Assembly: GCA_047967505.1 (NCBI GenBank)
Contig: CM106538.1
DNA: 64,000 bases
Reading direction: 5' to 3' (one strand)
From: Dipteris shenzhenensis
Taxonomy: Eukaryota
The notes under the pieces: model-generated
Databases searched by the model: none
Seen by the model: the letters and a program-made list of their open reading frames with translations, nothing else
What the model was told of the DNA's origin: nothing
Translations under genes and position numbers: made by a program
Shown here: in pieces, positions 10,004 to 54,205 of the stretch
How positions within the stretch are numbered: the stretch's first letter is position 1
Layout: every line of letters starts with the position of its first letter

Positions 10004-12414
10004 ACGTAGGCTTTGCCAAATTCAATCAAGGTAGGCTTCCAAATCTTCTTCGAGATATACAGATTGGAATACCCTGCAACGCTCTTGATCGCTTCCGTTC
10101 AAACTTGTTACTTCACTTGGTTATGAAGAATTCTCCTTCTTTGGCAAAATTCAACATCCTGAATGCGTTAGTCGTTTCCCTGTCAGCGGTTTCCCTGGAC
10201 AATTATCTTCCGCATTGCATATTCCAAAGAGTGCCACGGAGTTGTGCAGTCATGATCTAGAGAGGCTTCTCCAAGTAGTGCTTTTGCCTGCGCCAGAAAT
10301 CCACTCTATTACTAACATTTATTATCACGTCAAGTGCACTCTTTGGCTATTAAGAATTCTTTCTGCAAACGAATCCCCGCTCAAATATATCCCTCACGTT
10401 GCCCGCGGTTAAAAAGGCCATTCTATGTCAATGGGTAGTACGTAGCAGTTGTCATGCTTGACTGAATCAAACGAATTCATTCAAAGAGTTCCATTAATCC
10501 TCCTAAGCAATTTTACACATACAAACCCAACAGCCATCGTGTTTTGCTGAATCTGACGATGTCTTCTCACTGCTGGTTTTCGGAATTGTGCCATCAAAAC
10601 GTCCATCGTCGGGCGTCAGTCTTTGTCTTGGAGCTGTCTCACGGTTCTTCTACCGGACGAAGTTAAGATTGAGCTCCGACTATTAGACGATGGCGTTGCC
10701 AGGGATATCTAGGCTTGCTGTATTTATTCCCAGATCTTGGGTCTTCTTTTGTAGAAGAAACAACCCACCTCACGAAGACGCCCCTCGGGTTGTGTCATCG
10801 AGGAAATGCCCAGTGGATACTCCAAGGTTGTCGTGGTTGAACTAGACTCCCTTAGTATCGCTTCTCTCTCTCGGATGTTTAATCGCAACTGGAGATACTT
10901 GCCCTGGCAAGAGCCTTGCTCTGAAAGGCAAGCTATTTCCTAACTTCTCAAAGCTTCCTGCGCTGATAAATCCTAACTTGATGAGGGAATCAATCTTGCC
11001 AGTCTTGAGAGCCTCTCCAGCTTTGTTAAGCTCACCGGGCTTTCTTCGCTTGTCGAATTTGTTGTTGACGGTATCGTGTTAATGATTGGCACTGTCTACA
11101 GATATAGGCCTCAATTAGTTATGTCCGTTTTTGTAATTCTCCTTCTCCTCAGGCTTGCGGGAATCCTTGTCTCTAGGAGCTTATGAAGCTCTTTGGATTT
11201 GGGGCGATCGGAGGTAGCATTGGAGGAAGCAGCCCGATGGGAGGAGCAGACGGTGAAGGGGGCATTGCATAGCACCAATGTCCTTCCACTGGGACGATTT
11301 CAATAAACTTACGGGGACAGGCGCAAGCTCCTGGAGCTCCCGATGCTGCAGCACGTCTGGAGGGAGTAGCTAGGGCCATGGAAGCTCCAAGGTGGCGATG
11401 CCCCTTTTCTATAGATCTCTTCTTCCAAGAGGGTGTGTCTAGCTTTTGGTCTCTTTCTACTGAATTTTGTTGTCTGCTACTATGAGGCAATTGACACTAT
11501 CATTTCATGTTAGCATTTTGAGATTATGCATGACTTAGCAGCACTCCTTGTGGCTTACGTAACATGGACACTTTGAGTTGCTACCATTGGTAGACTACAC
11601 AATAAAATAGTTTGGAGGTGGATGCGATGCAAACATCAATAATTGTTGCGATCTGATCAAAGTTTGCAAAAGTGTCAATGATAACTATTGCCAACTCATA
11701 AGATCATGGACATAGTGAATCATTTTAGATATAATAAGATGTTATTTATACGCACTTTTATATTTCCATAGTCGTAATTTTTTGGAATCTTGCAAAGGCA
11801 AAAATTGTAACTACAACTGCTCGAAGATGTGTGAAGATGATTACCTTGATGGTTTGAACATCTTTGATCATTGGATTGTGTATAGCTTTTGTGCTTGAAT
11901 TTATCATCTTTAGGAAATTGCACATATGCTAACCAACATATCCAAACATGCAGAACAAGAGGAATGCATATTGACTAATCATGATTGTTTTTCAGATTCC
12001 AACATTCCAGCAAAGAAATAGGCGACTTCTCGTCGAGCTGTGGACGTCACAAAGGATACTCCACGTAAGTAGAATGTACGGTCATTTCAATTCTGAAATG
12101 TTTCTGCACCGTCTGTTGCTCTGGTCCGCATTAATGCGCTACACCTCCAACACTGGAGGTGACTATTCGAAACGGGGGGATGGCACGTTCCCCTATGATA
12201 TATAATTTTTGGAGAGACATGTGCTGGCTCTCCACCATACATTACGTATGGTTTTTTTTTTTTTACACATCTTGAGCACGCACACTTCTTCGCACATTCT
12301 GTTTCTGCAAGGGAACATTACATTTGCTTGGTTCGACCAACATACTAATCATGTCTGCAACACTTCTGTTTTCGAGATGTTTGCAGCCTCCAAACGAGTG
12401 TCTTCTCCTAAAGG

Positions 12415-13454
12415 GGGGGAAATCTTTTGGCGAGCTTTTTAATGTGAGCTTTTTTACCATTTCCTTTGTTTTTGCGAGCTTTTTTTAGAAATCCATACAT
12501 GTTTTTGTTATAAGAAAGATGGGGAGGTTAGAAAGAGGGGGAGAGAATATAGGATATGTTCATTTTCATAGCATGTGGGAGGGGTGGAAGAGTGTATACT
12601 ATGCACAAGGGGGGGCGGATATGAGTGGCAGTAGGAGGCAAAAAATTATGGAAGATATGTCCATATTCAAAGTAGAAGGGAGGAGCTATTGGAGATATGT
12701 ACATTTTAAAAGTGTATAATTTGAAATTTTTGACCTCATATTTGGATTCCTCGTCGAATTCCGGTCATTTTGAGTACCAACATGACCATATTCTGATAAA
12801 AATTGGAAAAATGGTGTTTTTGTCATTTTGGCCTGTTTGGGGCCTGTTTTGAGTCTGTGCTAGCCATTTTGGCCTGTTTGGGGCCTGTTTTGAGTCTGCG
12901 CTAGCGCAGACTCAAAACAGGCCCCAAACAGGCCAAAATGACAAAAACACCATTTTTCCAATTTTTATCAGAATATGGTCATGTTGGTACTCAAAATGAC
13001 CGGAATTCGACGAGGAATCCAAATATGAGGTCAAATCTGTCAAATTATACACCTTGAAAATAAACAAATTTCCCACATGCTCTCCCTTCCCCTTTACATT
13101 TAGTAGATGAACATAACTTTCACATTCCTCATCCTCTCTCTCCTCCTTGCACTCCTCTTTGCATACCTTATAAGTTCCCCCTCTACGTTCTCCACTATGA
13201 TAATGAATATATGTTCCAACTCCCCTCCCCTCCCTTCTCCATGCCACCTTACCCATGCGCCCGTCCCTCCCCCTTTCCTTTATCTCCCCTCCCCCCCCTC
13301 TCTCCTCTTAACTGCAACCACAACCCAAACTTTCAACCCACCCCACTCCATGACCCCCCCCCCCTCTCTCTCTCTCAGGTGAATGAAAAGCTCGCAATAT
13401 TCATGAAAATTGAAAAAAAGCTCATGACAAAAAGCTCACCAAAAAATCACACCC
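12415..13454. mobile_element. Non-autonomous Mutator-like (MULE) foldback element with central palindrome
   Basis: Direct repeat CTCCTAAAGG flanks it (12405-12414 and 13455-13464; 9-10 bp TSD). Imperfect G-initiated TIRs carry repeated GAGCTTTT / AAAAGCTC motifs. The central palindrome spans 12729-13035. No credible ORF. Confidence 0.8.
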
Positions 13455-13677
13455 CTCCTAAAGGTACGCACAACAGAATGTATTTGCTTGATTCAAGTTA
13501 TTTTATCAATTCTTTCACCTTCTAAAGATAGAGGTTCAGTCCATTTTGTTTTTCCTGTTGCGTTTAGACAAAACCACGTGAGTGAAATTCTAGCAAAGTT
13601 TCGGATGGTTTTTATTATTAATCCCTGTAGGTGTTTAAACCCGAACATAAGACATCGATTCATGTCACGATGTAGAA

Positions 13678-16600
13678 ATGACCACCGGAAACTCCTTCGA
13701 ACATGACCATTCGTCAACGGTCAGAGCAGCCAGAGGTCGAGCTATTCAACTTGATATAACATCAAGAAAGATGTCCTTGAGGCCAGCTACGTCATCGTGG
13801 TTGACCATCGCAGATAGATACAAGCAATGGGTTAGTAATTGCACGGCTATTTTCTCTAGCCTTCAAATCTGCGATGTCTGTGGCATAACCACGGTACTGT
13901 CTGCAAACCAAAGGATCGTTTCTTCGCAACGCATAGGCATCTCGAGCCACAGCGCCGCACTCGAAAACATGATACTTTTGGATGCCTGCGAGAATATGGG
14001 CATGCAAGTGACTTACTGGAAATGCCAAAGCAGCACACGAGATGCCCAGCGGAGCAGATACATTGTGCGGTTGATGCACTCTCGGCAGTTGCTTAAAACA
14101 AACCACCTCCACACGCAACTGCTAAGCATCATAGATATATCCATTTCAGTTACCACGACTGCAAATGCGATTGCTCGTGGCACACTCGATCGAAGGTCAC
14201 TTCTAGACAATCCTCTGATATCTCGAAAAAACATCCCACTAAGCTCGGCTCAAGAAATCGTGACGAACGAGCTGTCAGGTGTGCTCCCATACAACATCGA
14301 GAACAATCCAATATTGTGCAAGTACAATTCTTTAGCAGAGCGTGCGGACATCAAGATGGGTATGTGCATCTTGAGTCCTCAAACCATTGCAGGTATCTTG
14401 GAACTACACGATGAGACAGCTCCCTTCGAGTTAATGTCAATAGCAGAATCTCAGCCTGAGCTCCTGCTTTTGCAAAACATGGTGGACCCCGCGAACCGTT
14501 GCGCCTTTGATGCAAGGGACAAGCATGAGTTTGCCTCCATACAGCTACGGGGTACATAAATGCTTTCAGAGAGGGTCGCTTCATTCCACGTCGACGGAGT
14601 AGCAGCAGCTGGCAGTGCGTGCGTTGACATAACCATGGAGTCAGCAGTGTTCCCCTTCCTGTTCCCTTTCGGACGGGGCTACTATGATGGCTGCATACAG
14701 TTCAGCAACTATGTGAAAATGAGAATATGCACCTTATTCTCTATCTACACGCTCTACAAGCCGTACTTGTTGATCACGTTCCAGTTAAAACAGGGAGTGA
14801 TGATTGCCAATTCAAGCAACTCTACATGCTTGCAACGAGACATCGACCAATATAGGAAAGCCAACCCTGCCACGACCGATGAAGACGCAATGAGACACGT
14901 GCTTCGCTACAGCATGCCATCAACAATGCCGGGGTCCCCATCGTGGCATCGACGGCAACTGAAGGACCTCATAACGATGGTCGATGCTTGGGGCCTCCCA
15001 GATTTCTTTCTGACATTCACTGCAGACGAGGTCACCAATACACGATGGCAAGAAATTAATGTGATCGAGAGCATCGCAACACATTATAATGCGCAATTCA
15101 CTTGGAAGGACTGTCCTGTTGAATGCGTGGCACTTTTCCACGCACGCTTCCACATGTTCATGCGCAAGCATTTGCTTTCATCCGACGGTCTGCTTGGCCA
15201 AATACAACACCATGTCGTTCGTTATGAGATACAAAACAGGGGCTCCCTACACGCCCATGTCATATTGTGGGTCCACCATGATGACCGTCAGCGAATTGCA
15301 AATGAGATTGCGGCTTACGTCCCCAGGGACGAGGCCCTGGATCCTCGAAACACAAGGCTGCGAGAACTAGTTCTCAGGAAGCAGTTGCACGTATGCAGGA
15401 AAGCGTGCTACGTCGGACCGTCACACCACAGTTGCAAGCACGGCTTCCCTTTCGCAACACAGCCAGAATATGAACCCATCCTCGACCCTCTGACGCAACG
15501 TTGGTTGTATTACCGGCCGGGACACGAGCACCAAAATGTCGTCCCTTACCACCCTTCCGTGTTACTGTTGTGGGGTGCACACATGAACATACAGCGGGTG
15601 ACAAACTCTTCAATCTCTCACTACCTCCTCAAGTACGCGATGAAATCTGAACCAATGGGCAAACTGAACATCCATTCAGAAGACGCCTCGCGTTTGGGGT
15701 TGCAACATCTCGACGAAGTAAAGCTGAAACTCATCGCCGCGAGCCTCCTATCAAAACCAACCTCTCCAACAGAGGCCGCGCTAAACTGCATGCAGATACC
15801 AACAATCACAAGGAGCGAGACCGTTCACTATGTTGACTCCTCGCCACCATCTCTAAGACAACGCATCATCTCGCGCAACAACAACGTCACCCTGCACCCG
15901 GTCGACATATACTGCGGGAGACCGAGCGTCATCGAGGATAGCACGTTCTACGATTACCATAGGCAATATGTGATTCGAAAGCCCAAGGAAACGCAACGTG
16001 AAACGGTCGGTCTTGACCTCTTAGGCAACAGGATCGCAAAATGTGAGCGAGTAGTCAGATTCACTGACTACCACCCTGGACATCAACCAGAGGGGTACTT
16101 CTACAACGTGCTCTTGCGAAAACTCAGCTTCACGAATGAAACGGAGCTCATATCACCTGCCAACACAGCTGGATCCTACTTTGTCGAATGCCAAATGCGC
16201 GGCCTCATATTGAGCAACGAGGACCTCGAGATGTATGTGACCGACTACATGCAAAGGAACTTGCTAGCGACTGACCACATAGACCAGTTGATCAATATGA
16301 TATTGCAAAAGGTTGTGATCATCCGAGACTGCTCGATGGAAGTGCCTAACATCGACCAGCAAACCGTCGAAGGGCCAACACGCGCGAGGATGTTGGAAAA
16401 AATGGCCGAGTTTCGCACCGTCGCCAATGCCGCATTGACAGTAGAACAACAAAGAGTCTTCGAAAGCCTAGCTTCAACAAGCTCGAGGCTGCACGTTGTC
16501 TGTGGAACACTAGGTAGCGGCAAAAGCTTCTTGATACGGTACTATGTTTTGCATCTGGTAGTGCAAAACAAAACGGCAATACTCTGTGCATCAACAGGGG

Positions 16601-17739
16601 CGGCTGCGACGCGGCTGAGCGGGATTGCAACCACTGTACACTACCAATTCAAGATCCATGTGCGCAGCAGCAGTTAGTACCCACTGAACATCCATGAGAC
16701 GGATGAGCGACACCTCGCAATCAAGGAAGCCAACGCGATCATCATTGACGAGATGTCCATGCTAACAAGGATGACTTTCGATCTCGTGGTAAGACAAATC
16801 GTCAATGTGACTAATGGCACATTGCATGAGCCATTCAGACACAAAATGCTCATAATTTTTGGTGACCTGGCGCAATTACCGCCAGTCTAAAAACACCGCG
16901 AGGATCTCTGCGAGCCGTGCCACATCACGTCCTCCGCGCACTGGGCTCAAGCGAAAATGTACCACATGCAATTCTCGGTGCGACATGCACGAGACATGCC
17001 GTTCCTGGCATTCTTGCATACCATAAGACTCAGGACGCCCACAACTGATGAGATTTCCGACTGTTTGGGGCAGTGCATTGTTGACAAGGAAGGTGCATGC
17101 CACTTCATCGATGCCGAAACAACCATCATTTGCACGCACAGAGTTGATGTCGCTACCTTCAACGATGAGCTTGTGGAGAAATTCAACACTCCCGAGATGA
17201 TTGTGCATGTTCAAATACACAGTAACGCCGCGAGCGAACCAGCTCTCAAAGAATGGTTGGAGGACAAAAGCTTCAACGAGATAGGAAAAATTTGTGTGGG
17301 GGCGAAGGCAATGATAACGGAAAACATCGACCTCGCAATAGGTGCCGCAAATGGAGCAATGTGCAAAATCAAGAGCATCAATGCAACTAGCAGGGGAGAA
17401 ATCAATGGTATCACTGTCGTCGTGGACACAACAGCGGCCGTGCTCACATTACGACGCTCAAAGCATCAGCGAAAGGCAATAAATGGAAAATGGTTCCACA
17501 AGTCCACATTTCCACTAACCCTAGCATACACTATCACGGGACACAAATCCCAAGGCGCAACCATATCCAACAAAGCGCTGCTCATATTTCGAGGAGTGTT
17601 TGCCCCTGGCCTAGCATACGTGATGTTGTCCAGAGTGACTGAGAGAACGAGGCTGCGCATACTACATTGCCCACATCCAGACATATTCAGACCTATTCCA
17701 CGAGAGTTCTCACAGCCAACAACACAACCACGCGCATAA
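13678..17739 (+). mobile_element. Helitron-like RepHel transposase (HUH-Y2 Rep plus PIF1/SF1B helicase), Helentron/Helitron2 type; pseudogenised by three in-frame stops
   Basis: ORFs 13678-14559, 14560-16677 and 16957-17739 share one frame, with stops at 14557, 16675 and 16888. Rep motifs: FFLTFT, RYEIQNRGSLHAHVILW, HYLLKYAMK. Helicase motifs: GTLGSGKS, ASTGAAA, IIIDEMSM, FGDLAQLPPV, FPLTLAYTITGHKSQG, GLAYVMLSRV. Confidence 0.95.
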
Positions 17740-17849
17740 AGGTATTCACTACCAGAGATTGAAAAAGGCAGAGACAAGTCATGAATATGTTACGTCAAAC
17801 ATGCGTGCAAGGAAAATGGTTTTAATATCTTGTCTGTTGTCGAGAACAG

Positions 17850-19180
17850 GTGCAGAGAATCAGAAAGCTCGGGACATTGCAGCATAAGACATGGACGCAG
17901 ACAAGGTAAATTCCACCAGCATGAAAGAATCTTTTTTTTTTCTTGAAGATTTAAAAAGACAGCTCATTTGAAAAGACGGTGTAATAAGTCGTGCCTGCAA
18001 GCAGCTATTTGAGCTATACAAAAGCAATGCGAAGGCAACAAAACCTCCACCAGCAAAGAGGAGGTTCTTCCTAACCACAAAGCAATTCCGGCTAGCAAAC
18101 AATGCAGGAGAACGTCCGGGAGCTTACATCAATGGCTTCAACATGTATGTGGAACTACGCGACTTCATTGACAACTGCAATAGGCGTTTGCCAGCTAAAA
18201 GAGAGCCGAGAGGCTTGAGATTCGCAAATGGTACGTAATGCTTCCGAAAATTAAAAAAACCGCAACAATTGAGAAAAAGAATTAACGAGTTGCAAGAACA
18301 ACAAACTCATCATGGATTGCACTTCTCCTGTAGGACTCCTCAAAGAGATCCTTGTCGAGCTTGACATTGAGTTCGATGAGACCGATAGGATGATGGAAAG
18401 TTTGGAGGGGCAGAAGCTACTAGACACGAAGACGAAAGGGATCACAGCGTATGCGTGCGAGCTGCTGCATTACGGGTACAACGTATTCTTGAAGTTGCTG
18501 AGGGACACGACGCGCGATCAAGGAACAGCTATACTCGAACAATTCATGGAACAATTTGGAGGGGCGCACGACGTGACGCACCCGGTGACGACAATGGAGA
18601 AGCTTACGTATATTTTCGACAGGGACTTATACGAGGAGCACTTCGGTATTGGAAACGATCCTTTAACGCCAACAGAGAAAAACCAGGGCAAGTAAATAAA
18701 TGCATTCTATTATGGACCTCAAACGAAAAAAAAAAGACCAAAAACCTCGATGATTAACGTAATTGTCAACGTTTACGCAGGTACGACATTGAAAGACGCG
18801 AGCCTCCAGATGAAGGAGGAGCCTCCACTGAAGCGCCCGCGCAAGGGAATCGTGCGAGCCTCGTCGTCTACTGCATCACGTGCAAGCCCAACAACAAAAA
18901 ATACATAGGGAGCACGACGGACATGCCGCGGAGGATCAAACAGCACAATAAAAAACCACCTACGAAAATGAAAGAGGACTTGCAGCATTACAAGCCCTTC
19001 AAAGAAAATTTCGAAATCAAAGTTTTGGAAACAACAAACACTGTAGACAAAGCACGAACTTTAGAGCAGTACTACATAAGGAGCCACAACACAGTAGGTC
19101 CATTAGGTTACAACACGCTCGAGGGCCATCCGGCTAGAGCGCGGAAGTACTATTTCCTAAAGCGTAGGAACATAATTTGA
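17850..19180 (+). pseudogene. Spliced accessory gene downstream of RepHel encoding a C-terminal GIY-YIG endonuclease
   Basis: The last exon (18781-19180) reads VVYCITCKPNNKKYIGSTTDMPRRIKQH...LEQYYIRSHNTVGPLGYN. Intron 18692-18780 (GTAAAT...CGCAG, phase 2) joins it in frame to ORF 18312-18695. An upstream exon at ~17850-18234 contains two stops. Confidence 0.8.
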
Positions 19181-20679
19181 CCCAATCCAATGAAGTTGCA
19201 AATGGTGCTGGAACTTTTGTCGTACATGCAATGCAGCTTTGGGTTTGGATTATTCCTGTCACAGTTGCATGCTTCTGTCTCAATTTGGTTTTGATTTATT
19301 ATTTATACATTTCTGAAATACATCTCCCCGTCATTCGAAGTGGAATGACAATAGATTTGCTTACAGTGCAAAGAATAGGAATTTTTCTTCCTCCGAAAAA
19401 AAGAAAAACTACGTTTTACTGTCGACATGAACAACATCAAGTGCAAGCAGGACTGGATGATAACGAAATCTCTACAAAAGGTTGCATGCAATTGAACATC
19501 AATCTTCTGCATCATTTCTGACAACGTGACTCATGTGAACCTCAACAAGATAGCAAAAGAGAGAAGTATTCATCAAGAGCCCAGCTGGCCAAGCAATCTA
19601 GTTGCGGCTCTACTCTATAACTTATTGAAGCCATTCTAAGCAGTGCCTTCTTCAGCCCAGCAGCACGAGTTCAGGCGGGTGGGGCTTTGACCAAACTGTG
19701 CTGCTGGCTGCAGTTTGGGCTTTCACCCACCTCTGGTGGCTGCCCGCCTTCGATAGCTCGCTGCCTTCATTCAATAGGTTCCATTCCCTAGCTGCAGTGC
19801 CTCGCACAACAGTTTTAGTCAGTTTGGGCTTTCACCCACCTTTGCTGGCTGCCCGCGTTCGATAGCGTTCCATTCTCGACGGTTTTGACGTCCACTCACC
19901 GACGCTCGCTGCCCGTTTTTGATGCCCTTGGCTACCTCTCAAAGCACATCTGCTTGCTACCTGCCCACATAGCTCTAGAGGCACACAGAGTTGGCCCCTT
20001 GTAGTTTGTTCGTTAGAGGCAACCATATGGACCCGTTAAAAACGAACAGAGTCGCATTAAGTTTTGGTAAATTGAAATCTTTTTAGCATACCAAAGGGAA
20101 AACAATGATTGATGATGTTATTCCCTTGGAAGATCCAACGGGAAACTAGAGAGGACTATAAACAAATGCCACACAATAATGGAGATGCTTCACATCAATG
20201 GTATGGGAAATAGCACCCTCAGATCTAGAGCATGGAGTGCTATTCCCATGACCCCCCCTATTTTTAGTCTATTTCCCATGGTGCATTTTACACAACGTAT
20301 TTGAAATACTTGTTGGAGCGAGGAGCGGTGAAATCTTCTTCTCACTCGTTAATGTTTTTGGAAAATAAGGTTAATCTAAGTTGTGTATTTGAAATTACCT
20401 TTTAGAAAGATGTGATGTGAAGATTTTAGCTTTAAGCTATGATTACTTTTTAATAGCTCAACACATCAAAAAAATCATTTGCTTTTCTCACTTACCAATA
20501 TAGTAGATCTACTAATGCGTACTTGTTCAAGCCTGGTTTCAATCTAAATTATGTGTAGTTTATAAGGTACGATTTGTTGAGCAAATAGATAGAATATGAT
20601 GTTAAGTGGTGACTTGATTTTAGAGGGGTGATGCATCATTTGGAGGAAGGGGGAAGCATGCACGCGTGTGCACGTGCAC

Positions 20680-20701
20680 GCACACACACACACACACACA
20701 C

Positions 20702-20733
<32 letters not shown>
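20680..20733. repeat. Compound (CA)n/(GA)n microsatellite
   Basis: Read directly. Confidence 0.9.
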
Positions 20734-20736
<3 letters not shown>

Positions 20737-21618
20737 TAGTCATCTTGAGACATCTAAATCCCCTTTTGGGTAGTACACACCTATTTGCCATTTCCCTCAA
20801 ATCATTGCCAAAGCACATAGAGTTATGCAATAGCGACTTGGATTAGATTTTGTTTTCCTTAAGGCATTTTGCTATTTTAGATAATAGAACCAATCGGTCC
20901 TCACTGAGTTTCCTATAGAGATTGAGCATTAGCCAGAGTAGTAGAGCACCAAGGTCAAAGGTTTAGAAGCATGACTTTCATGGTCAATCCCTATGGTATT
21001 TACATAGACTTTGCCTACATATCCAAGAGCATCAACTATGATTACATCCTTTAAAGGAGCAAGTGCTACCTCGAATGAAACTCTATGGGCAAGTTGACCT
21101 CTATGCTCGTCCATGATGGCACCCTATATGAGAGTGTATATTATGGATTTTGCCCAATGCTCCTTTCCTTTCTTGAATCCCCTTCATGTTACCAGGACTT
21201 AGATTTGAGAAGATTAGTTTCTCCAGTGTCAAAATGGTAGGCAACCGACTCCTTACCTCCCTTCCTTTTTGCTCCTCACCTCCCTTCTTTTGACTTTAGG
21301 CCCCTAGAATTCTCCTTCTTTGCATGCTCTCCATGCAACAAACACCATAGAAATAATGAGATCTTTGGATCATAGCAAAGTATGTACTTGGAGAAGCAGC
21401 TTCCTAAGCAAGTATGTAGGTGGAATCAAAGGCAAGATTCCCAAGGTCCTCCTTAAAGGACCACAGTTTTACTCCTGAGTTTGAGTTCTACTCCCTTATG
21501 TAATTTTTTTTATCGAGGTTATTTTTGTGAATTACAAAGCATGTGTTTGATTTTCTTTCAAAATTTTCTAGGGTCCTTTAGACCACTACCCAACACCGTC
21601 TCTTTGACTGAGGGGGTG

Positions 21619-22648: not shown

Positions 22649-23021
22649 TGTTGAGTTGAGATGGGCACTTGTGAAGATAGTGGGAGAGAGGGAAGGAGTC
22701 TCACTTGCGGCTTTCTCACATGCACAATGGGGGAATACACACAAAGGTGGAGGCTGAAAACAGTTTTCCTCTTCTTAGTTGTGAAAGCCAAAAGAACTCT
22801 AGTACAAAGAAATAGAAGAACCCTATATGTGGGTCTCAAACCAAACTCAACTAACTAAGGTGGCATACTAACTGAGCCACGAACTAGTGTAGATAAGGAT
22901 AGCTGTTATCCAGCTATTATTTGTGGGCGGTGTACCAACCGCATCTGTAGCTAACAAGTCGGTGACATGAATGCACAACAGTCACCCTGGCATATCGCGA
23001 GTGGAGCTCGATATCTCAACA
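22649..23021 (-). repeat. 3' LTR of copia element
   Basis: Termini TGTTGAG...CTCAACA. PPT GAGGGGGAG is adjacent at 23022-23030 on the minus strand. Confidence 0.85.
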
Positions 23022-26000
23022 CTCCCCCTCGAGCTCAATCCCAATTCCTGCACACCAAGTACGTCTCTGAACTTGCGCAGCTTCTCTACGCCCAATGCCT
23101 TCGTGAATATGTCAGCTACCTGATCCTCTGTGCTGACATAAACTAGATCAATAAGACCTAGTAAAACCTTCTCCCGCACATAGTGATAATGCACCTCAAT
23201 GTGCTTTGTTCTAACATGATAGACTGGGTTATTTGCCAAGTGTATACTACTCATGTTGTCACAATAAATGACAACTGGCCCATCTGTAGACTGATGCATA
23301 TCATAGAGTAGCTTATGCAACCAAGCTACCTCACATGCAGCCATTGCTGCACCCCTGTACTCAGCCTCTGTGCTCGACAAGGCAACTGTAGGCTGTTTCT
23401 TGCTGCTCCAAGTGACTGCAGCACTCCCAAAAGAGAACACATATCCACTGGTAGATCGTCTATCAGAAATACTACGAGCCCAATCAGCATCAGTGTATCC
23501 ATGCAACTGTATCTGAACCCCAGTCTCATAAAATAGTCCATACTGCAATGTGGACTTCACATACCTGAGTATGCGTCTAGCCGCATCCAAATGCGGTTTC
23601 CTTGGAGCCTGCATAAACTGACTTACCAACCCAACAGCATAGCTCAAATCTGGCCTGGTAATAGTCATGTAAATCAAACTTCCTACTATGCGTCTGTACA
23701 TAGTAGGGTCTTCCAAAAGCTCACCTGCATCTGTGCTCAGCTTCACATTCTGCTCCAAAGGAACTGAAATAGGCCTACAGCCTGTCATCCCATATTTGGA
23801 CAGCATGTCCAATCCATACTGCCTCTGCAAGAGTTGTATCCCATTTGGTGATCTAATCACCTCAATGCCCAAGAAATAACGCAGCTCTCCCAAATCCTTC
23901 ATCTCAAACTTCTGCCTCAATAGCATTTTCACGTGAAGGACATCTTCATCACTATCACCTGTGATGATCAAATCATCAACATAAATGACCAGCAGCATAA
24001 TCCCTTTCTCTATTTTTCTCACATAGAGTGAGAAATCTGCCTTGGAAATCTGAAAGCCAATAGTGACAAGATACTGTCCTATCTTGTCAGACCATGCTCT
24101 AGGTGCTTGCTTCAAGCCATACAAGGCTTTCTTCAACCTGCAAACAAACTTAGGATGAGTAGCATGAACATAACCTGCTGGCTGCTCCATAAAGACCTCT
24201 TCTTGCAAATCACCATGCAAGAAGGCATTCTTTACATCCATCTGATGTAAAGACCATCCCTTTGATGCAGCCATAGCAATGGCTACTCTTACGGTTGCCA
24301 TCCTTGCAACCGGGCTGAAAGTTTCTTCATAATCAATGCCATATGTCGGTGCATACCCCTTGACAACTAATCTTGCCTTGTATCTATTCACAGAACCATC
24401 TGCATTGTGCTTGATCTTATAAACCCACTTACAGCCAATTGCATTCTTGTCTTTAGGCAAAGGCACCAATTCCCATGTAGCATTAGCATCCAAGGCATCC
24501 ATTTCTTCATCCATGCCTTTCTCCCATTTTTCATTTCCCATGGCTTGCTCAAAAGAAGTGGGTTCTGGTTCCTATATCACTTTGACCATATAGGCATAGT
24601 GAATGGCTGTAAATCCATCATATTTCAGCCTATCCACAGGATACCTAACCTTGGTAGACTGCGCGAAATAGGCTCACTTCTAGGTGCTCTCAAAACATCC
24701 CTGGTCTTCCTTACTCCAGGTGTAACAACAGAAGGAATACCCAACTCATTATCAATGCTCTGTTCTGAGCCACTGGATTCACCATCCACATAAGAGTGAC
24801 CTGCATTCACATCAAACATGGGCTGATCTACCTTCTCTTTTCCTTTTCGTGATACCTGCATACCACTCTCTGCATTGCTTTGAGGAGATTCTCCTGATCT
24901 CAATCTGCCTGTCCATGGTAAAGTATGTGAACCACTACTAGAGGACACTCTAGGTCCACTAATATTTTGTGATTGCTGCTGTGAATTCTGTGCAGCATTA
25001 CCATTTTGTGCATCTACATCAATCATTACATTTACTGGTTTATACCAGCTGCTCATCTCATCAAAAACAACATCTCTGCTCACTGTGAACTTTCGTGTAG
25101 AAGGGTTATAGCATCTATACCCTTTCTGCTGTAGAGAATAACCAATAAAGATGCACTTCTCAGCTTTTGGATCCAACTTGGACCTCAACTCATCTGGCAC
25201 ATGGACATAGGCAATGCAACCAAAAATTTTCAAATGAGAAATATCTGGTTTCCTACCAGTATACATCTCCTCTGGCGTCATGCCATGTATTGCTGCAGTG
25301 GGAGTCCTGTTCATTATATAAACTGCTGTAGCAACTGCTTCAGCCCAATAACAATCTGGTAGATCTTTTTCATTTAGCATAGCCCAAGATACCTCTCCAA
25401 TATGTCTGTTTTTCCTTTCTGCAATTCCATTTTGCTGTGGGGTATGACTGCATGAATATTGCTGCTTTATACCATGCTCCTGCAAGAACCTTGCAAACTC
25501 ATTTGAGAGGTACTCTCCCCCTCCATCTGACCTTAGGCATTTTATTTGCAGGCCTGTTTCTTTTTCAACCATAGCTTTGAAAGCTTTGAAATGCCCAAAC
25601 ACTTCCCTTTTCTTTTTCATAAAATACACCCAAAGTTTTCTACTGAAGTCATCAATAAATGTGACAAAATAGTGATAGCCTCCAATAGATGTAGCTTTAG
25701 TAGTCCACACATCAGAGTGGATTAATTCCAATGGCTTTTTACTCTCTTGAACATGCCTAGGAAAAGGTTTCCTTGCCTGTTTCCCAAATTGACAGGCTTC
25801 ACAAACCTTGTGCATTTCTGCAACCTTGAATTTAGGCAATCTTGCAACAATATTTTGGGCCTGCATTGATTTAAGTCACTGTACATTAACATGACCAATG
25901 CGTTTATGCCAGATATCAATATCTGCAACTACACCGGTCCCATGTGCAAACATTGCTGCACTCAATTCAGGCATGTCCACATCCAGCGTAAACATCCTGC

Positions 26001-27334
26001 CTTTCTTCTTTCCTTTTGCTATCAAGCGACCATTATTTTTCATATCCTCAACAAAACATCCATGAGGATTGAATCTGACTTGCAAGCCCTGTTCAACCAT
26101 CTGATCAACAGAAACCAGGTTCTTGGTGATGTTCGGGACATGAAATACATCAGACAAGTATTTCTTTTTCCCATCCTGCATAGATAAAGGAATTTTGCCA
26201 ATCTGCACAATAGGATGTGCAGTATCATCACCAGTCTCCACAAATCCTGGTTTTTCCATTTTCCTTGCATCCTGCATCCATTCAGCATGACCTGTCATGT
26301 GGTTTGACGCACCTGAGTCAACATACCACACATCATTGATTTCTTCTGCACTTGTCACAGAATTTGTCATATGCTGCACCATAAACAAATGCGCATTTTT
26401 GTCATCACCCTGTCTACTAGAGGATGCATAATTGCCTTGCTGCAATTTTCCATTCATAATGTCATTTTGCTTTTTATAGCAGTCCTTAGCCATATGACCC
26501 ATTTCGCCACAATAGTAGCATTCAACATTGCTGTTTGCATTTTGGCCTCTCTGCCATCCACCACGGCCTCTTTGGCTCCCCCTGCCTCTAGAGTTACCAC
26601 GTCCTCCTACATAGGACTGGTTTTCTTGCGTTTGCTGCATATTTTGATTTCTACCACGGCCTGCAGATCGGCCTCCTTTACCTCTGCCAGCATTTGAGTA
26701 GAAGACAGTTTCTTTTGAAGTTCCTGTTGAAGAAGATGCACCCCCATTTCTCTGCTCTTCAGAAATTAGAAGAGCAATCAACTCCTCAAAATCAGGAAAT
26801 TTTTCACGGACGGCAATGGATGTCCGGAACTGTGCATAATCCTTTCCTAGACCATTCAAGGTCACAGAAACTAAATCGTCATCATCCACTGGCGACCCAA
26901 TGGAAGCAAGTGCATCTGCAATTTTCTTCACCTTCATGTGGTAGTCATTGATGCTCATATTTTCTCTCTACACATTGTGCAGCTCCTGCTTGAGTTGCAT
27001 TTTCTTGGCCTGCGTATTTGTGCTGTACATTTTAGCCAAAGTATCCCATGCCACCTTTGGCGTACTTGCATCCTCAATATGCACAATCATTGAATCTGAA
27101 ATACTGATAGACAGCCAGTACATAACTTTCCTGGCTCTCTCATGCCATCCTTTGAATGCCTGCATTTCCTGTTGATTGGGAACATTAGGAAGAACAGGTT
27201 CTTCTTCATTTCCTGTAATGAACTCCCAATAAGCCTTTTCCCATCAAGAAATTCGTCATTCTAAACTTCCATGCCTGGAAGTTGTTCTTGTCAAGCTTTT
27301 CAGTGACAATTTGTGAAAGAGAATCAGATGCCAT
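22982..27334 (-). mobile_element. Ty1/copia gag-pol, nearly complete with a few stops and frameshifts; 5' LTR and PBS missing
   Basis: MASDSLSQIVTEKLDKNNFQAWKFRM start; CYYCGEMGHMAKDC; WYVDSGASNHM; IWHKRIGH; integrase HSDVW, RSDGGGEY, NGIAERKNR; RT QMDVKNAFL, YVDD; RNase H YTDADW, TKHIEVHYH. Confidence 0.95.
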
Positions 27335-29199: not shown

Positions 29200-32100
29200 G
29201 TACTTCAAGAAATTTGTTGTTGCAATAACCGAGCAGCCAAGCACTTCTTTATGGCATTGCAGGTTGGGGCACATGAGCCAGAATGGAATGAAACTCTTAT
29301 GCCATTTGGGTTATGTACCGCATTTGAGTTTCTCTAATTTTGAATTTTGTGAGCACTGTCTCTATGGGAAGCAGACTAAATCAGCCCATAAAAGAAGGGG
29401 AAAGAAAGAGTTTGAAAAGCTTGATTTGGTGCATTCAGATGTATGTGGTCCCATGCCTACACGATCATTAGGCAGGGCTGAATACTATGTGACATTCATT
29501 GATGATGCAACTAGAAAAGTGTGGGCTTATGCTATAGCTCAGAAGAGTGATGTGTTCTAGGTATTTCAGAAATGGCTGGCCTTGGTTGAGAATCAGTCTG
29601 GTAGAACGCTTAAATGCCTATGGACTGACAATGGTGGAGAGTATCTCTCTCATGACTTTCAGCATTTCTGTGATACACGTGGGATTAAGAGGGAGCTCAC
29701 ATCCCCTCATACTCCAGAGCAAAATCCAGTTGCAGAAAAGATGAACCGTACCATTCAAGAAAGGTTGCAATGCATGCTTTCCAATGCAAGTTTTTCTGGT
29801 GGTTTTTGGGCTAAGGCAATGAAAATTGCAGTGCATGTGATCAATAGATCACCTAGTAAGAGTTTGGATGGTGGTATTCCTGAAGAGGCATGGAGTGGCA
29901 AGAAGCCCTCTTACTCTCACTTGCATATATTTGGGTGCGAGGCATATGCACATGTGCCAAAAGAGCTTCGAAAGAAGCTAGATCCTAAGTCTAGGAAATG
30001 CATCTTTCTGGGTTATGGTGAAAGTGGAGAGATGGGCTATCATCTCTGGGATCCAGAAGCAAAGAAGATCATACGTAGCCATGATGTGGTCTTCAATGAG
30101 AAGAAGATGCATAAGGCACCCATGAGGGATGTGGAAATGAGGAGAATCACTTTCCAGGATGTGAATCCACCTGCATATGTTGATAGACAGCAGGCTGTCC
30201 ATGCACCAAATGTGCAAGAAATGGTACCACCAAGTACTCCCAGAGGTATACAATCAAGGGTAGATGATGGATCATCTATTGGTGGAAATGATGAGCCAAA
30301 TGTGGCTGATATGCAGGTGGGACAGCAAGCTAAAATGCCCTTGAGAAGATCTTCTAGAGTGTCTAGACCACCTGATAAGTTTACTCTAGGGGTAGACTAT
30401 GTGATGCTTACTGATTGCGGGGAGCCTTCTTGCTACAGAGAGGCTATGATGCACAAGGATCAATGCAAGTGGGAGTATGCTATGCAATTAGAGATGAATT
30501 CACTTATGAAGAATAAGACTTGGGACTGGTTTCTGTGCCACATGGAAAGAAGCATTGCCATGTAAATGGGTCTACAAAATGAAGGTCACAGGTGATGATG
30601 TGCCTAGGGACAAGGCCCGTTTGGTTGCTAAAGGGTTCAAGCAAGAGAAGGGTGTGGACTTTGATGAGATATTCTCTCTAGTTGTGAAGATGACCACACT
30701 TAGATGCATGCTTGGACTAGTGGCAGTAGAGGATATGGAGCTTATGCAGATGGATGTCAAGACAGCTTTCTTGCATGGGGATTTGCATGAGGAAATTTAC
30801 ATGGTGTAGCCAGAAGGCTTTGAAGTGTATCAGCATGCAAAACAATTTGATTAAACTGAAAATTGTTCCTGGCAATCCAAATATACCATAATGCATGTGC
30901 TCTAATGGGAGCCTAGGCTCCTGTTTTGTCTTTGAAGAGTCCCATAGAAGAATATATTTCCAATTAATGAGCTCTCATGTTTCAAATTGAACTATTTTCC
31001 ATACTTTTCTAGCAATGGGACAGGCAACACAGAGGTGGAAGACATCTTCCTTTGTAGAAGGGCATCTCATACATTTATCATTTCTCTTCTCAATTCTAAA
31101 TCCTCTGTTGTTAGTCCATACAGCTTTGTGTAAAAATAAACCAAAGCAAAGCAGACATTTTGTCAAAGATTGAACTTGACCACATGTAGCAGAATCTGAA
31201 TTTCCATGTCTCTGGAGTCATGAAGATTCGACTCTGAAAAGATTCCCTATGTCTTTGGCTAGTAGGCTAGGTATAGGGAAGAAGGAAGAACTCTCAACCC
31301 AACTGAACTATCTGATGTAGACCAAAAAAGTTTCCCCTTTCCATTGTTGCTTAACCTCCCAGAGGAGCACTCTGTTCATGATCAAAGTTTGGTTCTAGTT
31401 GTTTAATCTAAATTCCCTCTTGATTTCAATCAAGGTTTTCCACCTGAAATCAACTCTGTTCCAAATCTGACCCCAAGACTGCACTCCTTTCTTAAAGAGT
31501 TCAGCAGCCATAGCAAACTCTTCATCAGATAGGGGAGGTTTCTTAAAGATAGTAGAGGACCAAATGGAGTCTAATGCCATAAAAGCCCCTTTTCTAGAGA
31601 AAACAATTTGAGTTTTAATTCCTTCAAAGGCTATCCATAAAGATTGCCATAGTTGACTGCCTTTGGCTTTGCACGGTTTAGGGCTACACATGGTTGACAG
31701 CATGGGATAGTTCTTCCATTTGGGAGCTCTCAAAGGTCTTAAAGAGCTTACATTCCTAAGAAGGAGTTGAGCCCAGTCCTCTTGAGGATGGAGGATTTCT
31801 TTGATTATCCAAGTTTAGGATAATTTCAGGGAGGCCTGCTCTATATCCACAACATCTAAACCTCCTTCATGCTTGGTTTTAATGCAAAAATCCCATCTGA
31901 CTTTTGCAATCTTGCATCCCCACAGAAAATGCCTACAAATTCTAATGAACCTATCCAGAACTATTCTAGAAGGGGACCAAGAAGTGAGGGAAACAATAAC
32001 AGGTCCCATGTGGCTCTTTGTTCCACTAGGAGGTCTAGGTACCATTCTGAGGCTTCATCGGTTATGGCCATGGGGAACCAGGAGACCTTGGTTTCAATGG

Positions 32101-35100
32101 ATTGATCTAGACCAGCTCGGCGTGTGGCATTAAAATGCTGGAGGAATCAGGTTGTATCGCCCCTACCATTGTATTTGGGAAGTTCAAGTTTGCCCAGGGG
32201 GCACCTACCTTGATTGTTATTGTTGCGGTCAAAATTGTTGCGAGGGTTAAAGAAATAACACTCTCTTGCCATAGCAAAAGGAGATAAGGTCCAACAGTGG
32301 GCCAAAACCTTTTGTAAAATTCAATAGGCAGTCCATCCTCTCTTGGTGTTTTGCCATCTGCCATTACCTTGACAGCTTCATACAATTCATCAAACAAAAG
32401 ATACTTGTCTAAGTATTTATTGTCAAAGTTGGCCACAGTGTTGTTTCTAGCAAGTTTAAAAAGTTCTTTGGCATTACTCACCTCAGGATCAACTTGAATA
32501 GTGGAGGAAAGTAGGCTCTAGAAGTGGAGATGAATGAGATCTATGTTTTCATCTAGAGAGGAGACAAGAGAGTTGTCAGATTTCCTAAGGAGGGGGATCT
32601 CTTCATTAGATCTTTTTCTTCTAATAAGTTTAAAGTATTCCTTAATAGGTCTCTCAGCTTTGCCAGCCCACCAATCTCTGAAGTATACTTTAGTATCATT
32701 GAGTATAATCTTCTCTTCTTTCCTGAGTTCCTTCATTTTCCCAACCAAATCTGCTTGAGCAAGTATGTCTCCCTCCTTGGCTAAGTATTCCAGAGAAACT
32801 ATCTTGTCTTATGCAATTTCCATTCTGTTGGCCCTTATTTTAGCCCTTTCCTTTCTTGCTTTTCTAAGTAGTCTTTGGGTTTGATCAACAACTGCACACC
32901 AGGAATCTCTGACTAATTTTATCTCAGAGAAGGCCATTAGCCAGATAGCTTTTATTTCCTCTTGGACACTTTTGATGTCAAAAAGTTTAGGGTCAGCCTT
33001 GAACTAGGAAGTGGACTTTTTTCCTAGTCCAAAGTCACATTTAAGGAGAAATGGTTTGTGGTTAGAGAGAAAAAGAGAGGATAGGGCTTGAGTCTAAAGG
33101 AAACTAGTAAGTCTTACTAGCTCTTATGAGGCATAGACCCTATCTAATCTGGACTCTCTTCTGTTAACCCCAACTTGGCTATTGGACCAAGTAAAGGAAC
33201 ATTTCATTCCCAAGTCAACAAGGCATAGTTCCTCTTTCAGATTCTTCCAAATAGAAAGTTCACTACCTCTTATTACTATTCCTTTTTCAAGCCATCTGTC
33301 ATAGGAGTTTTCAACCATATTGAAGTCCCCACCCACAAAGCATTTATTGCCTACATGAAGTAGAGAGTCCCAACTGATCTTCCTGTCCTGAACACTATTT
33401 GGGACATACACTGAAATTATAGAAAAAGTCTAACCCTATAAGGAGCACTTGAGGGATATCCATATATGTAAAGCATCTATTTCCACACTTGAAATTCCAT
33501 GGGTGTCGTTAGAGAGTATCCCAACTGCCACTCCACCCTTTCCTTCCTCATGTTGAGTGAAGAACCAATTCCTTCTCTTATCAACACATTTGAGTCGAAT
33601 TTCAAGAGAAGCACCTGAGACTTTGACCTCTTATAATGTAAAAAAAGTGGGAGAAAGGTTGTTGGCTCTAAGCCAATAAGCTATCTCTTCCCCTCTATCA
33701 GAGTCAGTAAGGCCTCTGACATTGAGGGAGAGTGGATATTGGTTTATTTACCATTATTTCTATTCCCCTTTCTAGCCCTGGGGTTCGGGCTATTGACTTG
33801 AGAGGAAACCCCTTTACATTGGGAGAGCTTTCTCTTACCTTGCACTTGTGTAAATGCCTTTCCTTGTACTAGAAAATCCTTCTCCCCAGTATTGACAAAT
33901 TCTTAGTCTTCTTCTAGATCCTCCTTACTAAGCCTGGAAGAGGTCATCTCATCATCTCTATTAATGTCTTCTTCAAAGTCCTTTGACCATCTTGGCTCTG
34001 CCTGTGCATCTAAGTCCATGTTCTGATTTTGCTTTATTCACTCTTCAGCCTCATAGTCAGCCAAGGCATCAAAGGCATTATTCAGTAGTAGAGAATCATC
34101 CACTTTCACTTTGCCTTTGTCAAGAGAGGGCTTGGTTTTAGGAGCACCTTCATTCAGAGGAAGGGTTTTCTCGGTATTGGTGATAGGAGCCTTGGGAATC
34201 CATCTCTCAATCTATTTAAAGTTATTGAGAGCAGGAGGATCCTTGGGTTTAGCTTTAGCTCTCCTTTGAGGACAATTTTTAACTGCATGGCTTGCCAGCC
34301 CACAAAGGAAGCAAGAGTTTGGTAGGTTCTTGTACAAGAGGGGCTGTTCTGTGTATAAACTGCCATTTCTGTTCACCATGACCAGAGTGCTAGGGACATC
34401 CTCTACTATGTCCATTTTAATACACACCTGAGGATTAGCTCTAGGGTTTATAAAATTTTCCTTCTCCACTCCCACTACCTCACCCAGACCACTACAAAGG
34501 GAGGCCAATTGGTTGCAGAGGGATAGAGGAAGATCTGATAGTTCTACCCACATAGGGGTAATGGTGGATCTAAGTAAATCAGGGCTGAAGTTGTGGCTCC
34601 TCCTTTTTAAGTAGAGGGGTTGGTGTCTAATAGTCCAAAGAGTATAGTTGAGGGCATTGGAGGCCACACTAGGGGTTTCAAAAAGGAAGACAAAGAAACC
34701 TTTCCTAAAAAACCTCACATTGCTCACAATAATGCCCTTTCTCACCCAGTTAGTCCTAACCCAGTTTTCAACAAAGGATAAGGGGGGCCTAGGGCCAGGA
34801 AGGAAACCTATGAGTGCATGGGTGCTTATCTAGTCTATAGAATCAGAGAGAAGATCTTCATTGACAACTGTTGTAACTTACTTACCTCCTATAGTGCCTT
34901 GATTCTCACCCAGAGTCTTACTTCCTCCTGATGGGATGCTGTCGACTGGCGTCTCTGCTACTTTCTCTTCTATCTTCCTGTGATACTTCCTTGCATCCTC
35001 TTCATCATCACTTCCTTCTCCAATTCTAGATGGGAGGTTGACAGCTGTGATTGGCCCGTCCTTGGCACCTCTGTTCCGAGCTCCTCTACCATCATCAGTT

Positions 35101-48900: not shown

Positions 48901-50009
48901 TGATTCGACATAAAGCATGTAATGTGCATATATGTACATTACACAAAGGGATATCAAGAATGGCTTTGAAATTGGGATCAACCTTATCTCTACTAGGTGT
49001 CTTCCTTCACCATTTGGGATCCATGACATATGATGGCTCCTTGCAGTAAAGGCATGGAGATTTTGAATTACCTCCTTTGCTTATGTTGAACATACACTTG
49101 AGGGTCTTGAGGTCTCGCCTGCCATATGCCAATCAACTTGGAAATCATCTTTGTAGGCTCACGGAAGCAAAAGGATGCACAAGAGTGGAGCAAGAAGTGG
49201 AAGCTGTCACATCAACTAGTAGAATGAAAATGAAAGTACAAAGTACTATAAAAGAGAACCCTAAGACCTTGTGTCCTAGTGGTACCACTAGTATTAGGTG
49301 TCATAAGACACTAAAAGTACTACGTGACCTAAGTGCCAATAACTAAAGCTACATGGCACATACTAGGGCCCAGAGGGCATTAATACGACCGAGAGAAGAT
49401 GGCCTACAAACCCCCTCCATGGTATGGGTTGAAGTATTCTAGAAACATCTCAGAATACCTACTGGATAGGCCCAAGCAATTTGTAAATCGTGAGAATAGA
49501 GGGAGTGGTAGGATGAAAAGAATTAGCCCTCCCATCAAAAGGCGGAATGTATAAATGGCCAAAAGTTTAACTTTGGTCTTCATTGTTGGATGCACAAATT
49601 TGGAATACAAGCTCTCTTTCTCTCTCTCATGAGTTGTCTTGAGTTCTCTTGTGTTCTTTCATAGTGCCCTTGTGATTGCCACTCCCTCCCTTCTTCCCTT
49701 CCATATTCCCCTCTTGCCCTTCCCTCTCCCTCTCTTCTCCTTTCTCCCCTCCCCCTCTCCCTCTCATGGACCCACATTGCAACATTCTTGAAGCTGCTTG
49801 CGTGACACAAGTGGTGGATGACAAGCCATGCATTGCTCCTCATCTCATGGAGACGAGGGAGTTCCCTCGACATATTGGTGAACTTCCCCATGACACGTGA
49901 GTCATAGCTAGGACTACACACCAAAATTCATGATTTTCAACATTATTTATGTGGGTGATACAAGATCTAGAGAACAAATAATCATTAGCATCAAAAACAA
50001 ACTTGCAAT

Positions 50010-53000: not shown

Positions 53001-54205
53001 AAGGAGGTGAAGAATGCCCGGGATAGCCCATCCTCACCCGGGCATTTCTGCCCGTCGATGGCCATCAAGGCCTCCAACATCTCATCCGTGGTGAATGGTG
53101 CCAACAACGTCGCCTGCATGCTGGGCTGGACCAGGGATGGAGTGTGCCTCCACACCTCCTCACGGGAGCGTCGAGTGCAAGGGGCAAGCGGCTCTTGCTG
53201 GAAAAGGGTCCTGTAGAAGTCGGTAGCCAACCCCAAGACCTCACCCGGATCCGTAACGATGTGCCCCTCCGCTGTCCTGAGACTCCGAAGCTAGTCACCT
53301 CTGCTGCTCTCTGGCCATGCAACCTGAAGAACTCCCTGCACATCCGGTCACCCTTCTGAGCCTAGAAGGAGAGAGGCGTGATAGGAAAACTTTGAACGGC
53401 ACTGGAGGGTCTCCTCAAGAAGGGCTCTGGCTCGAAGGGCCTGGATCTGAAGCTCCTCCGAGCCCGGGGCTGCCTGCTAGAGTCGCTGGATGGAGGCGAG
53501 GTCCCTCCGAAGAGCTCTCTCTCTACCCCACCATTCCTGTCGAACCTGTAGGGCTGCGAGTTGGCAAATCTGGCTAGACTCCTGCAAAGCCTGCGCCACC
53601 GAATCAACCAGATCCGCGCACTCACCCCAATCTCTGTCCCATAGACTGCATATACTGCTGCGCACGTCCACCCTCGAGAAAATGGAGTCAGGAATCCAGC
53701 ATGAGCGGGGGGGAAGGGCCTAAACTGCCGAGTCTAATGATAAGAGCACAGGCGCATGGTCGGAAAGTGTCGTCCCTGGAACTATCCTCGCCTGACTACC
53801 TCTGCTGATGGCCCAATCACTAACATAAAATCTATCCAGCCTCTCCAGGAGTCTGCCTCCTTCCCTGCGGAAGCCCCATGAGAAGTCCAAGCTCCCGTGC
53901 CAACGCTCCCGTGCCAACGCCGGTGCCAACGCCGGAAGGACGGGTCTCTCCAGCTGTCCCTACCTCCTGTCGCAAAGATAAAAGAGTCCCAAGCGGACTG
54001 CTCTGCCTGAGACATACCTGTAAACTCTGGTCCTTTGCCCTGCTGGTCCTCCAAGGTCTCCAGATTGTTGAAGTCACCTCCAACAATCCAGGAATCCATG
54101 TTTGGGAGAATCCCTGTAAGTGTCCTCCAGAAGGTGGCTCTGCAACGGAGGTTTGTGGGAGCATAAATGTTGAGGATTCCTACTCTGGAACCCTCCAGTT
54201 CCAGT
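50010..54205 (-). mobile_element. L1-clade LINE ORF2 (endonuclease, RT, zf-RVT), 5'-truncated, GC-rich, several frameshifts
   Basis: WIVGGDFN, ERLDRFY, SDHAPV, WRPITLL, LDFEKAYDRV, SVRQGCPLAP, YADD, YLG, EGGLG, CQIC...HCLWSC. Confidence 0.95.

Follow-up and report, generated by a model that had tools for sequence, protein, structure and literature searches.

Within a 64,000-nucleotide stretch of DNA from Dipteris shenzhenensis (contig CM106538.1 of assembly GCA_047967505.1; this whole stretch is referred to below as the window), two genes lie next to each other on the same strand between ~13.5 and 20.0 kb. The first encodes RepHel, a Helitron-type Rep domain followed by a Pif1-family helicase. 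The second is a modelled, spliced gene whose last exon encodes a GIY-YIG endonuclease domain. Both features are real and lie far beyond what chance would produce. We consider it probable that the region is a single decayed rolling-circle transposon of the HLE2 (Helitron2/Helentron) group that carried both genes.

An earlier note on this DNA had described a single 1353-codon RepHel frame. One homologous frame does run through the + strand at 13678–17739, but it is not open: translation places in-frame stop codons at 14557–14559 (TAA), 16675–16677 (TAG) and 16888–16890 (TAA), and the list of open reading frames (ORFs) splits the gene into 13678–14559, 14560–16677 and 16957–17739, all in the same frame. 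In Pfam the frame matches Helitron_like_N (3.1e-24, 86.7 bits) and, C-terminal to this Rep region within the same interrupted frame, a Pif1-family helicase, with PIF1 matched in two adjoining pieces (1.6e-07 and 1.5e-09) and AAA_30 matched as well; PIF1 helicases of the PDB match residues 926–1331 at 3.4e-25. The profiles that the earlier note proposed for checking its conceptual proteins, Helitron_like_N, PIF1 and GIY-YIG, are all matched in Pfam. A Synapsin_C match at the RepHel N-terminus (0.0008) is below the cutoff and was taken as noise.

To collect relatives, the frame was read through with X at each stop. The search returned 16 relatives at E ≤ 0.001 from 7997 scored candidates, 14 of them scoring 469–897 bits and the other two, which are distant, 71 and 40 bits, and its word prefilter may have hidden others. 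The best is an unnamed protein (42% identity), and the sole close relative with an organism name comes from the chlamydomonad Edaphochlamys debaryana (32% identity). In full-length matches the homology starts at query residues 35–58 and extends to the end of the frame through all three stops, and the frame closes ~20 residues past the last helicase homology. Because the stops fall in alignable coding columns and one frame is kept throughout, they are nonsense substitutions and not introns. Relative to the 14 close relatives, a conserved Trp ahead of the Rep tyrosine motif has also been lost, and the Walker A motif has a replacement of its own (Table 1). With three nonsense codons and substitutions at conserved positions, this copy of RepHel is a dead pseudogene.

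The Rep motifs can be aligned with those of Helraiser, the reconstructed bat Helitron (HLE1; PDB 7lcc) that serves as the mechanistic model of peel-and-paste transposition. The HUH motif (H-A-H, within RGSLHAHVILW), the two catalytic tyrosines (Y-LLK-Y) and the Pif1 helicase are all alignable, and both Rep motifs are conserved across the 14 relatives. The two proteins are nevertheless distant: Helraiser, the sole labelled HLE1 reference compared, scores only 76 bits when the whole protein is compared and 35 bits for Rep, whereas the 14 close relatives score 469–897 bits, and it has no accessory nuclease. Where Helraiser reads EFQKRGLPHAH, RepHel reads EIQNRGSLHAH, and RGS[LP]H occurs in 13 of the 14 aligned relatives, the remaining one having RQSLH. 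These data agree with the earlier note that the Rep is non-canonical, and its contrast between the two forms of motif 2 stands for this pair of proteins. Its further statement that RGS(P/L)H marks Helentron and Helitron2 elements, which we did not find in searchable text, is taken here as an assumption.

Based on the RGSLH motif, the low Helraiser score and the chlamydomonad relative, the element likely belongs to the non-canonical HLE2 group. The Chlamydomonas Helitrons named in two papers are classed there as Helitron2 (PMC3627910, PMC9977147; here and below, papers are cited from the accessible portions of their text). As Exo_endo_phos has no Pfam match in any piece of the RepHel frame, the element falls outside the Helentrons sensu stricto. 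DUF6570, an N-terminal domain that has been proposed as a marker of HLE2, not as a universal feature of the group (PMC11417382), has no match at E ≤ 0.1 in 13651–14556 or, over the remainder of the frame, at E ≤ 0.01, nor do the precomputed domains of the 16 relatives include it.

The downstream gene was modelled using three-frame translation and inspection of splice sites, and thus from sequence alone. The model contains four exons and three GT-AG introns, and the joined coding sequence of 999 nt has 332 codons with its sole stop at the end. It is self-consistent and agrees with the earlier proposal of a separate, multi-exon nuclease gene, with all junctions being predicted and the five-codon exon 1 being speculative. 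Exon 2 could also begin at another in-frame acceptor 3 nt upstream, at 18002. The modelled introns have a GC content of 0.33–0.36, compared to 0.47–0.49 for the exons longer than 15 nt and 0.496 for RepHel. One relative of the nuclease (P0078, 238 aa) aligns to residues 127–329 of the predicted protein and so spans the junction of exons 3 and 4, with weak similarity at the junction itself. For the N-terminal ~200 residues, Pfam and NCBIfam returned only sub-threshold matches, to a HeH/LEM-like domain (0.002, in exon 3) and a tRNA nucleotidyltransferase domain (0.0018); this part of the protein has no usable match in the Atlas, and its single-sequence fold has a predicted local distance difference test score (pLDDT) of 53.

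The C-terminal ~105 residues of the ~332-residue protein form the GIY-YIG domain. PF01541 matches 18758–19177 at 1.9e-14 (54.2 bits, where the cutoff is 22.6), and exon 4 contains the core just as it was first described, with VVY-x10-YIG, the Arg in RRIKQH, the Glu in LEQYYI and the Asn in GYN. It had also been pointed out that the ORF list misses this core, and it does, as its entry begins at an internal Met (18923) that lies downstream of the core in the same frame. A profile search of 1.84 billion representative proteins returned 1851 relatives at E ≤ 0.001, 76 of them at E ≤ 1e-10. The best match (P0018) is an 87-residue fragment with 84% identity and a deletion of seven residues beside the catalytic Arg, which indicates that at least one other, likewise damaged, copy of the nuclease gene is present in public data. 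The remainder of the best 150 of the 1851 have identities of 30–59%, mostly in the 30s to mid-40s, and are mostly 95–145 residues long. The relatives are short unnamed proteins, several of them very rich in Ala, and giant-virus-like clusters, and not named plant genes.

We aligned the exon-4 peptide with 47 sequences chosen from these best 150 relatives to give a family alignment of 48 sequences (A1). The catalytic set of the peptide is complete (Y30, Y41-I-G43, R51, E95 and N111) and falls in invariant or near-invariant columns: R51, Y110 and N111 are invariant, and Y41, G43, H55 and E95 are near-invariant. The peptide also has a segment that is specific to this family, H-x3-PP-x-(R/K)M-x2-D. 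An AlphaFold (AF2) model of the domain built on A1 has a pLDDT of 89, and its best match in the PDB is I-TevI (1mk0), with a template modelling (TM) score of 0.79 normalised to the target and 0.60 normalised to the query, a root-mean-square deviation of 1.9 Å and an E-value of 7.8e-05. SLX1 and UvrC match at E > 0.1. In a library of viral structures the best matches are GIY-YIG and homing endonucleases of phages and chloroviruses, and among the Atlas neighbours are two clusters for which the few taxa on record belong to Nucleocytoviricota. As modelled, the fold is closest to I-TevI.

The domain scores 55.2 bits (9.2e-15) with TIGR01453, the NCBIfam profile of group I intron endonucleases, just below the cutoff of 56.05. 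The likeness to the I-TevI and Seg homing endonucleases of phages and giant viruses is thus one of catalytic-domain fold and profile similarity. In those enzymes, however, the GIY-YIG domain is N-terminal, ahead of a linker and a DNA-binding domain, whereas here it is C-terminal and carries the family-specific segment described above, and Pfam detects no NUMOD or helix-turn-helix (HTH) DNA-binding module in the nuclease protein. The exon-4 domain would work like an I-TevI-type catalytic domain, in a protein that by its architecture is not a member of the TIGR01453 family.

Table 1 Features of the RepHel and GIY-YIG region (positions in the window; nuclease exons and introns are modelled).
Feature	Position	Strand	Details
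RepHel transposase pseudogene	13678..17739	+	1353 codons, single frame, intronless, 3 in-frame stops
Rep HUH motif region, EIQNRGSLHAHVILW, residues ~515-529	15220..15270	+	alignment to Helraiser 7lcc; 14 relatives
Rep Y2 motif, SHYLLKY, residues 647-653	~15616-15636	+	alignment to Helraiser 7lcc; 14 relatives
Helicase Walker A, GTLGSGKS	16504..16527	+	relatives G-x-P-G-x-G-K-T; conserved Pro replaced
Helicase Walker B, IIIDEMS	~234 nt downstream of Walker A	+	motif columns in relatives
Spacer, RepHel stop to modelled nuclease ATG	17740..17890	+	151 nt, GC 0.41
Exon 1 (modelled, speculative)	17891..17905	+	15 nt, 5 codons, ATG...AAG/GT
Intron 1 (modelled)	17906-18004	+	99 nt, GT-AG
Exon 2 (modelled)	18005..18230	+	226 nt; no family match
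Intron 2 (modelled)	18231-18333	+	103 nt, GT-AG
Exon 3 (modelled)	18334..18691	+	358 nt; predicted all-helical, low confidence
Intron 3 (modelled)	18692-18780	+	89 nt, GT-AG
Exon 4 (modelled), GIY-YIG nuclease domain, I-TevI-like	18781..19180	+	400 nt, stop 19178-19180
Probable 3' UTR and 3'-terminal part of the element	19181..20000	+	47-nt direct repeat, GC-rich patch

The arrangement of the locus suggests that the two genes are parts of one element. They are on the same strand and are separated by 151 nt in our model (the earlier note had given ~110 bp), the GC content of the larger nuclease exons is close to that of RepHel, and a positive AT skew continues unbroken over ~13.8–19.2 kb and differs in the flanks. 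Past the nuclease stop codon, a direct repeat of 47 nt (19711–19757 and 19820–19866, 94% identical, with a third, partial copy at ~19896–19918) lies within a GC-rich patch (GC 0.55) as a possible subterminal repeat of the element.

There is also a published precedent from a land plant. HELIANO (PMC11417382) reports HLE2s in six of the eight land-plant classes sampled, and HelenSM92, an HLE2 family of the peat moss Sphagnum magellanicum, carries a GIY-YIG domain, is bounded by short terminal inverted repeats and inserts at TT sites. The element described here resembles HelenSM92, as far as the description in that paper allows the two to be set side by side, in having a land-plant host, an HLE2-type RepHel and a GIY-YIG domain besides RepHel. 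The two differ in host. HelenSM92 has its reported inverted repeats, and no termini above chance were found here.

If the region is indeed a single HLE2-group element, an active RepHel would nick the element end via its tyrosines, then unwind and peel off one strand and paste it at the target, as is established for Helraiser. The GIY-YIG protein would most likely be an accessory nuclease carried by the element, supplying a second DNA-cleaving activity in a position comparable to that of the apurinic/apyrimidinic (AP) endonuclease of Helentrons. The protein might introduce nicks into target or donor DNA, with its N-terminal ~200 residues as the guide. By Rep signature the animal Helentrons belong to the same broad clade, and they too have an endonuclease besides Rep; however, theirs is fused to RepHel as a C-terminal AP (Exo_endo_phos) domain, whereas here a separate, spliced GIY-YIG gene is modelled (Thomas et al. 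2014, PMC4067079).

A number of observations weigh against a single two-gene transposon. The window holds no second copy, as blastn of 12001–21000 and tblastn with the RepHel, exon 3 and GIY-YIG exon sequences returned only self-matches and noise. With a single copy, the co-mobility of the two genes, like the action of the nuclease, is inferred. Scans for exact and 11-of-13 inverted repeats and for hairpins, together with Tandem Repeats Finder runs on the flanks, revealed no termini above chance in this single decayed copy: inverted-repeat matches between the flanks number four in the proximal 5' region against ~3.4 expected by our own arithmetic, and the DNA folding of 19640–19990 is no better than that of shuffled sequences (z -1.0). 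PF01541 is found in none of the precomputed domain sets of the 16 RepHel relatives (0/16). Fused RepHel–GIY-YIG proteins are also missing, with no protein longer than 680 residues among the best 150 of the 1851 GIY-YIG relatives and an empty result from a word search of longer proteins, so relatives offer no independent sign of linkage. The three introns of the nuclease gene, set against none in RepHel, would also fit a captured or an unrelated host gene. Finally, the intact 332-codon nuclease frame is not evidence of selection, because only ~0.7 stops would be expected in it at the rate seen in RepHel (3 in 1353 codons).

From the same scans, a candidate terminal pair (13546–13558 and 20093–20105) and a small hairpin at 20094–20127 are at chance level and are not claimed as ends of the element.

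A possible but rather unlikely alternative is that the GIY-YIG gene lies inside the element as a passenger with no role in transposition, either captured from a host or virus or descended from an invading selfish gene of the homing-endonuclease type. This would suit a domain of the I-TevI/Seg homing type, with its near-cutoff TIGR01453 score and its best folds in I-TevI and then in phage and chlorovirus endonucleases. It would also suit the literature, as HELIANO uses the word 'captured', lists many captured domains in HLEs and treats gene capture by Helitrons as known (PMC11417382). On the other hand, the frame is open and none of the catalytic residues has been lost, which in statistical terms cannot be told apart from chance. 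Furthermore, 44 of the A1 sequences show no I-TevI-type DNA-binding extension (no profile scan was made of these 44). Eight relatives have GIY-YIG as their sole Pfam match, namely four of the longer A1 members (P0025, P0045, P0059 and P0078) together with P0086, P0090, P0103 and P0128; for P0083, P0098 and P0108 Pfam gave no match at E ≤ 0.001. The sole NUMOD3/HTH architecture encountered belongs to P0165, a distant match.

It is less probable still that the GIY-YIG gene lies outside the transposon, either belonging to the host or having inserted separately, and happens to stand beside a dead RepHel. The single copy, the flank scans without termini, the modelled spliceosomal introns next to an intronless RepHel and the missing GIY-YIG domain in the 16 RepHel relatives would all be expected in this case. 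The shared strand, the 151-nt gap, the matching exon GC and the continuous AT skew argue against it, as do the nuclease relatives, which are short unnamed proteins and giant-virus-like clusters and not named plant genes, and the Sphagnum HLE2 family, whose copies have a GIY-YIG domain (PMC11417382). A canonical (HLE1) plant Helitron is very improbable, since its one point of agreement is that the Helitron_like_N and PIF1 matches do not separate the groups, while RGSLH stands where Helraiser has RGLPH, the Helraiser score is weak and the 16 relatives at E ≤ 0.001, of which two are distant and unlabelled, include no named land-plant Helitron protein, though others may have been hidden by the prefilter.

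Returning to the single HLE2-group element with two genes, a more far-reaching proposal, which we put forward as a doubtful one, is that the I-TevI-like nuclease is not a random capture and is instead conserved as a functional partner across an HLE2 clade of the green lineage (algae, mosses and the Dipteris host). Its N-terminal region would direct it to cut unoccupied or target sites, which would help a peel-and-paste element to be retained or to spread. In this it would correspond to TnpB in the IS200/IS605 HUH transposons, and perhaps to Fanzor in algal Helitron2. Were the nuclease gene a stable partner of this Helitron lineage, it would show HUH rolling-circle transposons gaining an extra DNA-cleaving enzyme for the second independent time, the first being the AP endonuclease of Helentrons, and it would be a tractable lead on the role of such nucleases in Helitron transposition.

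A Selaginella element is listed within the Helitron2 group (Bao & Jurka 2013, PMC3627910), and some green-algal and Selaginella Helitron2 elements carry a multi-exon nuclease-like gene, Fanzor1 (PMC3627910). The element here is similar to these in having a RepHel without a fused AP endonuclease and in having a chlamydomonad protein as its nearest organism-named relative. It differs in that its accessory gene is GIY-YIG and not Fanzor/TnpB, and in that the asymmetric terminal inverted repeats and double hairpins that define Helitron2 were not identified in the flank scans.

The earlier note had also mentioned GIY-YIG-bearing Helitron2 elements from green algae, and the literature searched did not yield such a report. 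In the Chlamydomonas paper PMC9977147, the accessible text has GIY-YIG only in a figure-legend key of active transposable element families and does not tie it to Helitron2-7_cRei; we take the key entry to belong to the Penelope-like elements of that figure. Other co-mentions of Helitron and GIY-YIG (PMC9977147, PMC9033089, PMC6431247) concern Penelope-like elements or unrelated genes in the text available, and besides HELIANO we found no report that links a Helitron to GIY-YIG, as judged partly by titles and the openings of abstracts. HELIANO itself settles the question of novelty, which had been thought to lie in the host and the gene architecture: with an HLE2 family that has GIY-YIG in Sphagnum magellanicum (PMC11417382), the combination has been published before from a land plant, and the element here is a further example and not a new kind. 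This prior report, together with a copy that is dead and single, limits the weight of the finding. The present case adds a second lineage of hosts, places the nuclease in an I-TevI-like branch and gives, as modelled, the structure of a separate spliced gene.

The rest of the window is rich in repeats. Directly upstream of the RepHel region, and either outside the Helitron or nested in its 5' end, is an element of the foldback or miniature inverted-repeat transposable element (MITE) type at 12414–13455. Its outer inverted arms (12414–12483 and 13386–13455) are 70 nt long and 76% identical, and its inner arms (12669–12864 and 12900–13095; 196 nt, 91%) lie around a near-perfect palindrome centred at ~12902. 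On the other side, a compound microsatellite at 20677–20734 consists of (CA)13 followed by (AG)15.5.

Copia-type ORFs for gag, protease, integrase and reverse transcriptase, along with a reverse transcriptase of the long interspersed nuclear element (LINE) type, are part of this repeat content. The coding region of a copia-type long terminal repeat (LTR) retrotransposon occupies 22985–26967 (-) in three ORFs separated by stops, which cover gag, a zinc knuckle and Pol_BBD, then integrase, then RVT_2 (9.3e-79). An integrase fragment is found at 29561–30562 (+) and a copia gag at 44385–44888 (+). Between these, an ORF at 34215–34829 (-) matches DUF4283 (2.5e-13) and, weakly, zf-CCHC_4, a pairing that is typical of plant retrotransposon-derived genes. 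A GC-rich block at 50000–54300 (GC 0.56–0.57, against ~0.41 elsewhere) encloses the non-LTR (LINE-type) reverse transcriptase ORF at 51638–53290 (-; RVT_1, 7.7e-32). Rfam and tRNA scans of the window found no RNA genes.

By its sequence the host looks like a land plant, as the earlier note had said, and probably a seed-free one other than Sphagnum. This is borne out by an intronless F-box/kelch ORF of 465 codons at 56625–58019 (+), in all probability a gene of the host, for which the nearest named proteins come from ferns (Adiantum, 51–53% identity; Ceratopteris, 48%) and then from mosses (Sphagnum, 43–46%, with S. magellanicum at 46%; Physcomitrium, 45%), and unnamed transcripts reach 70–71%.

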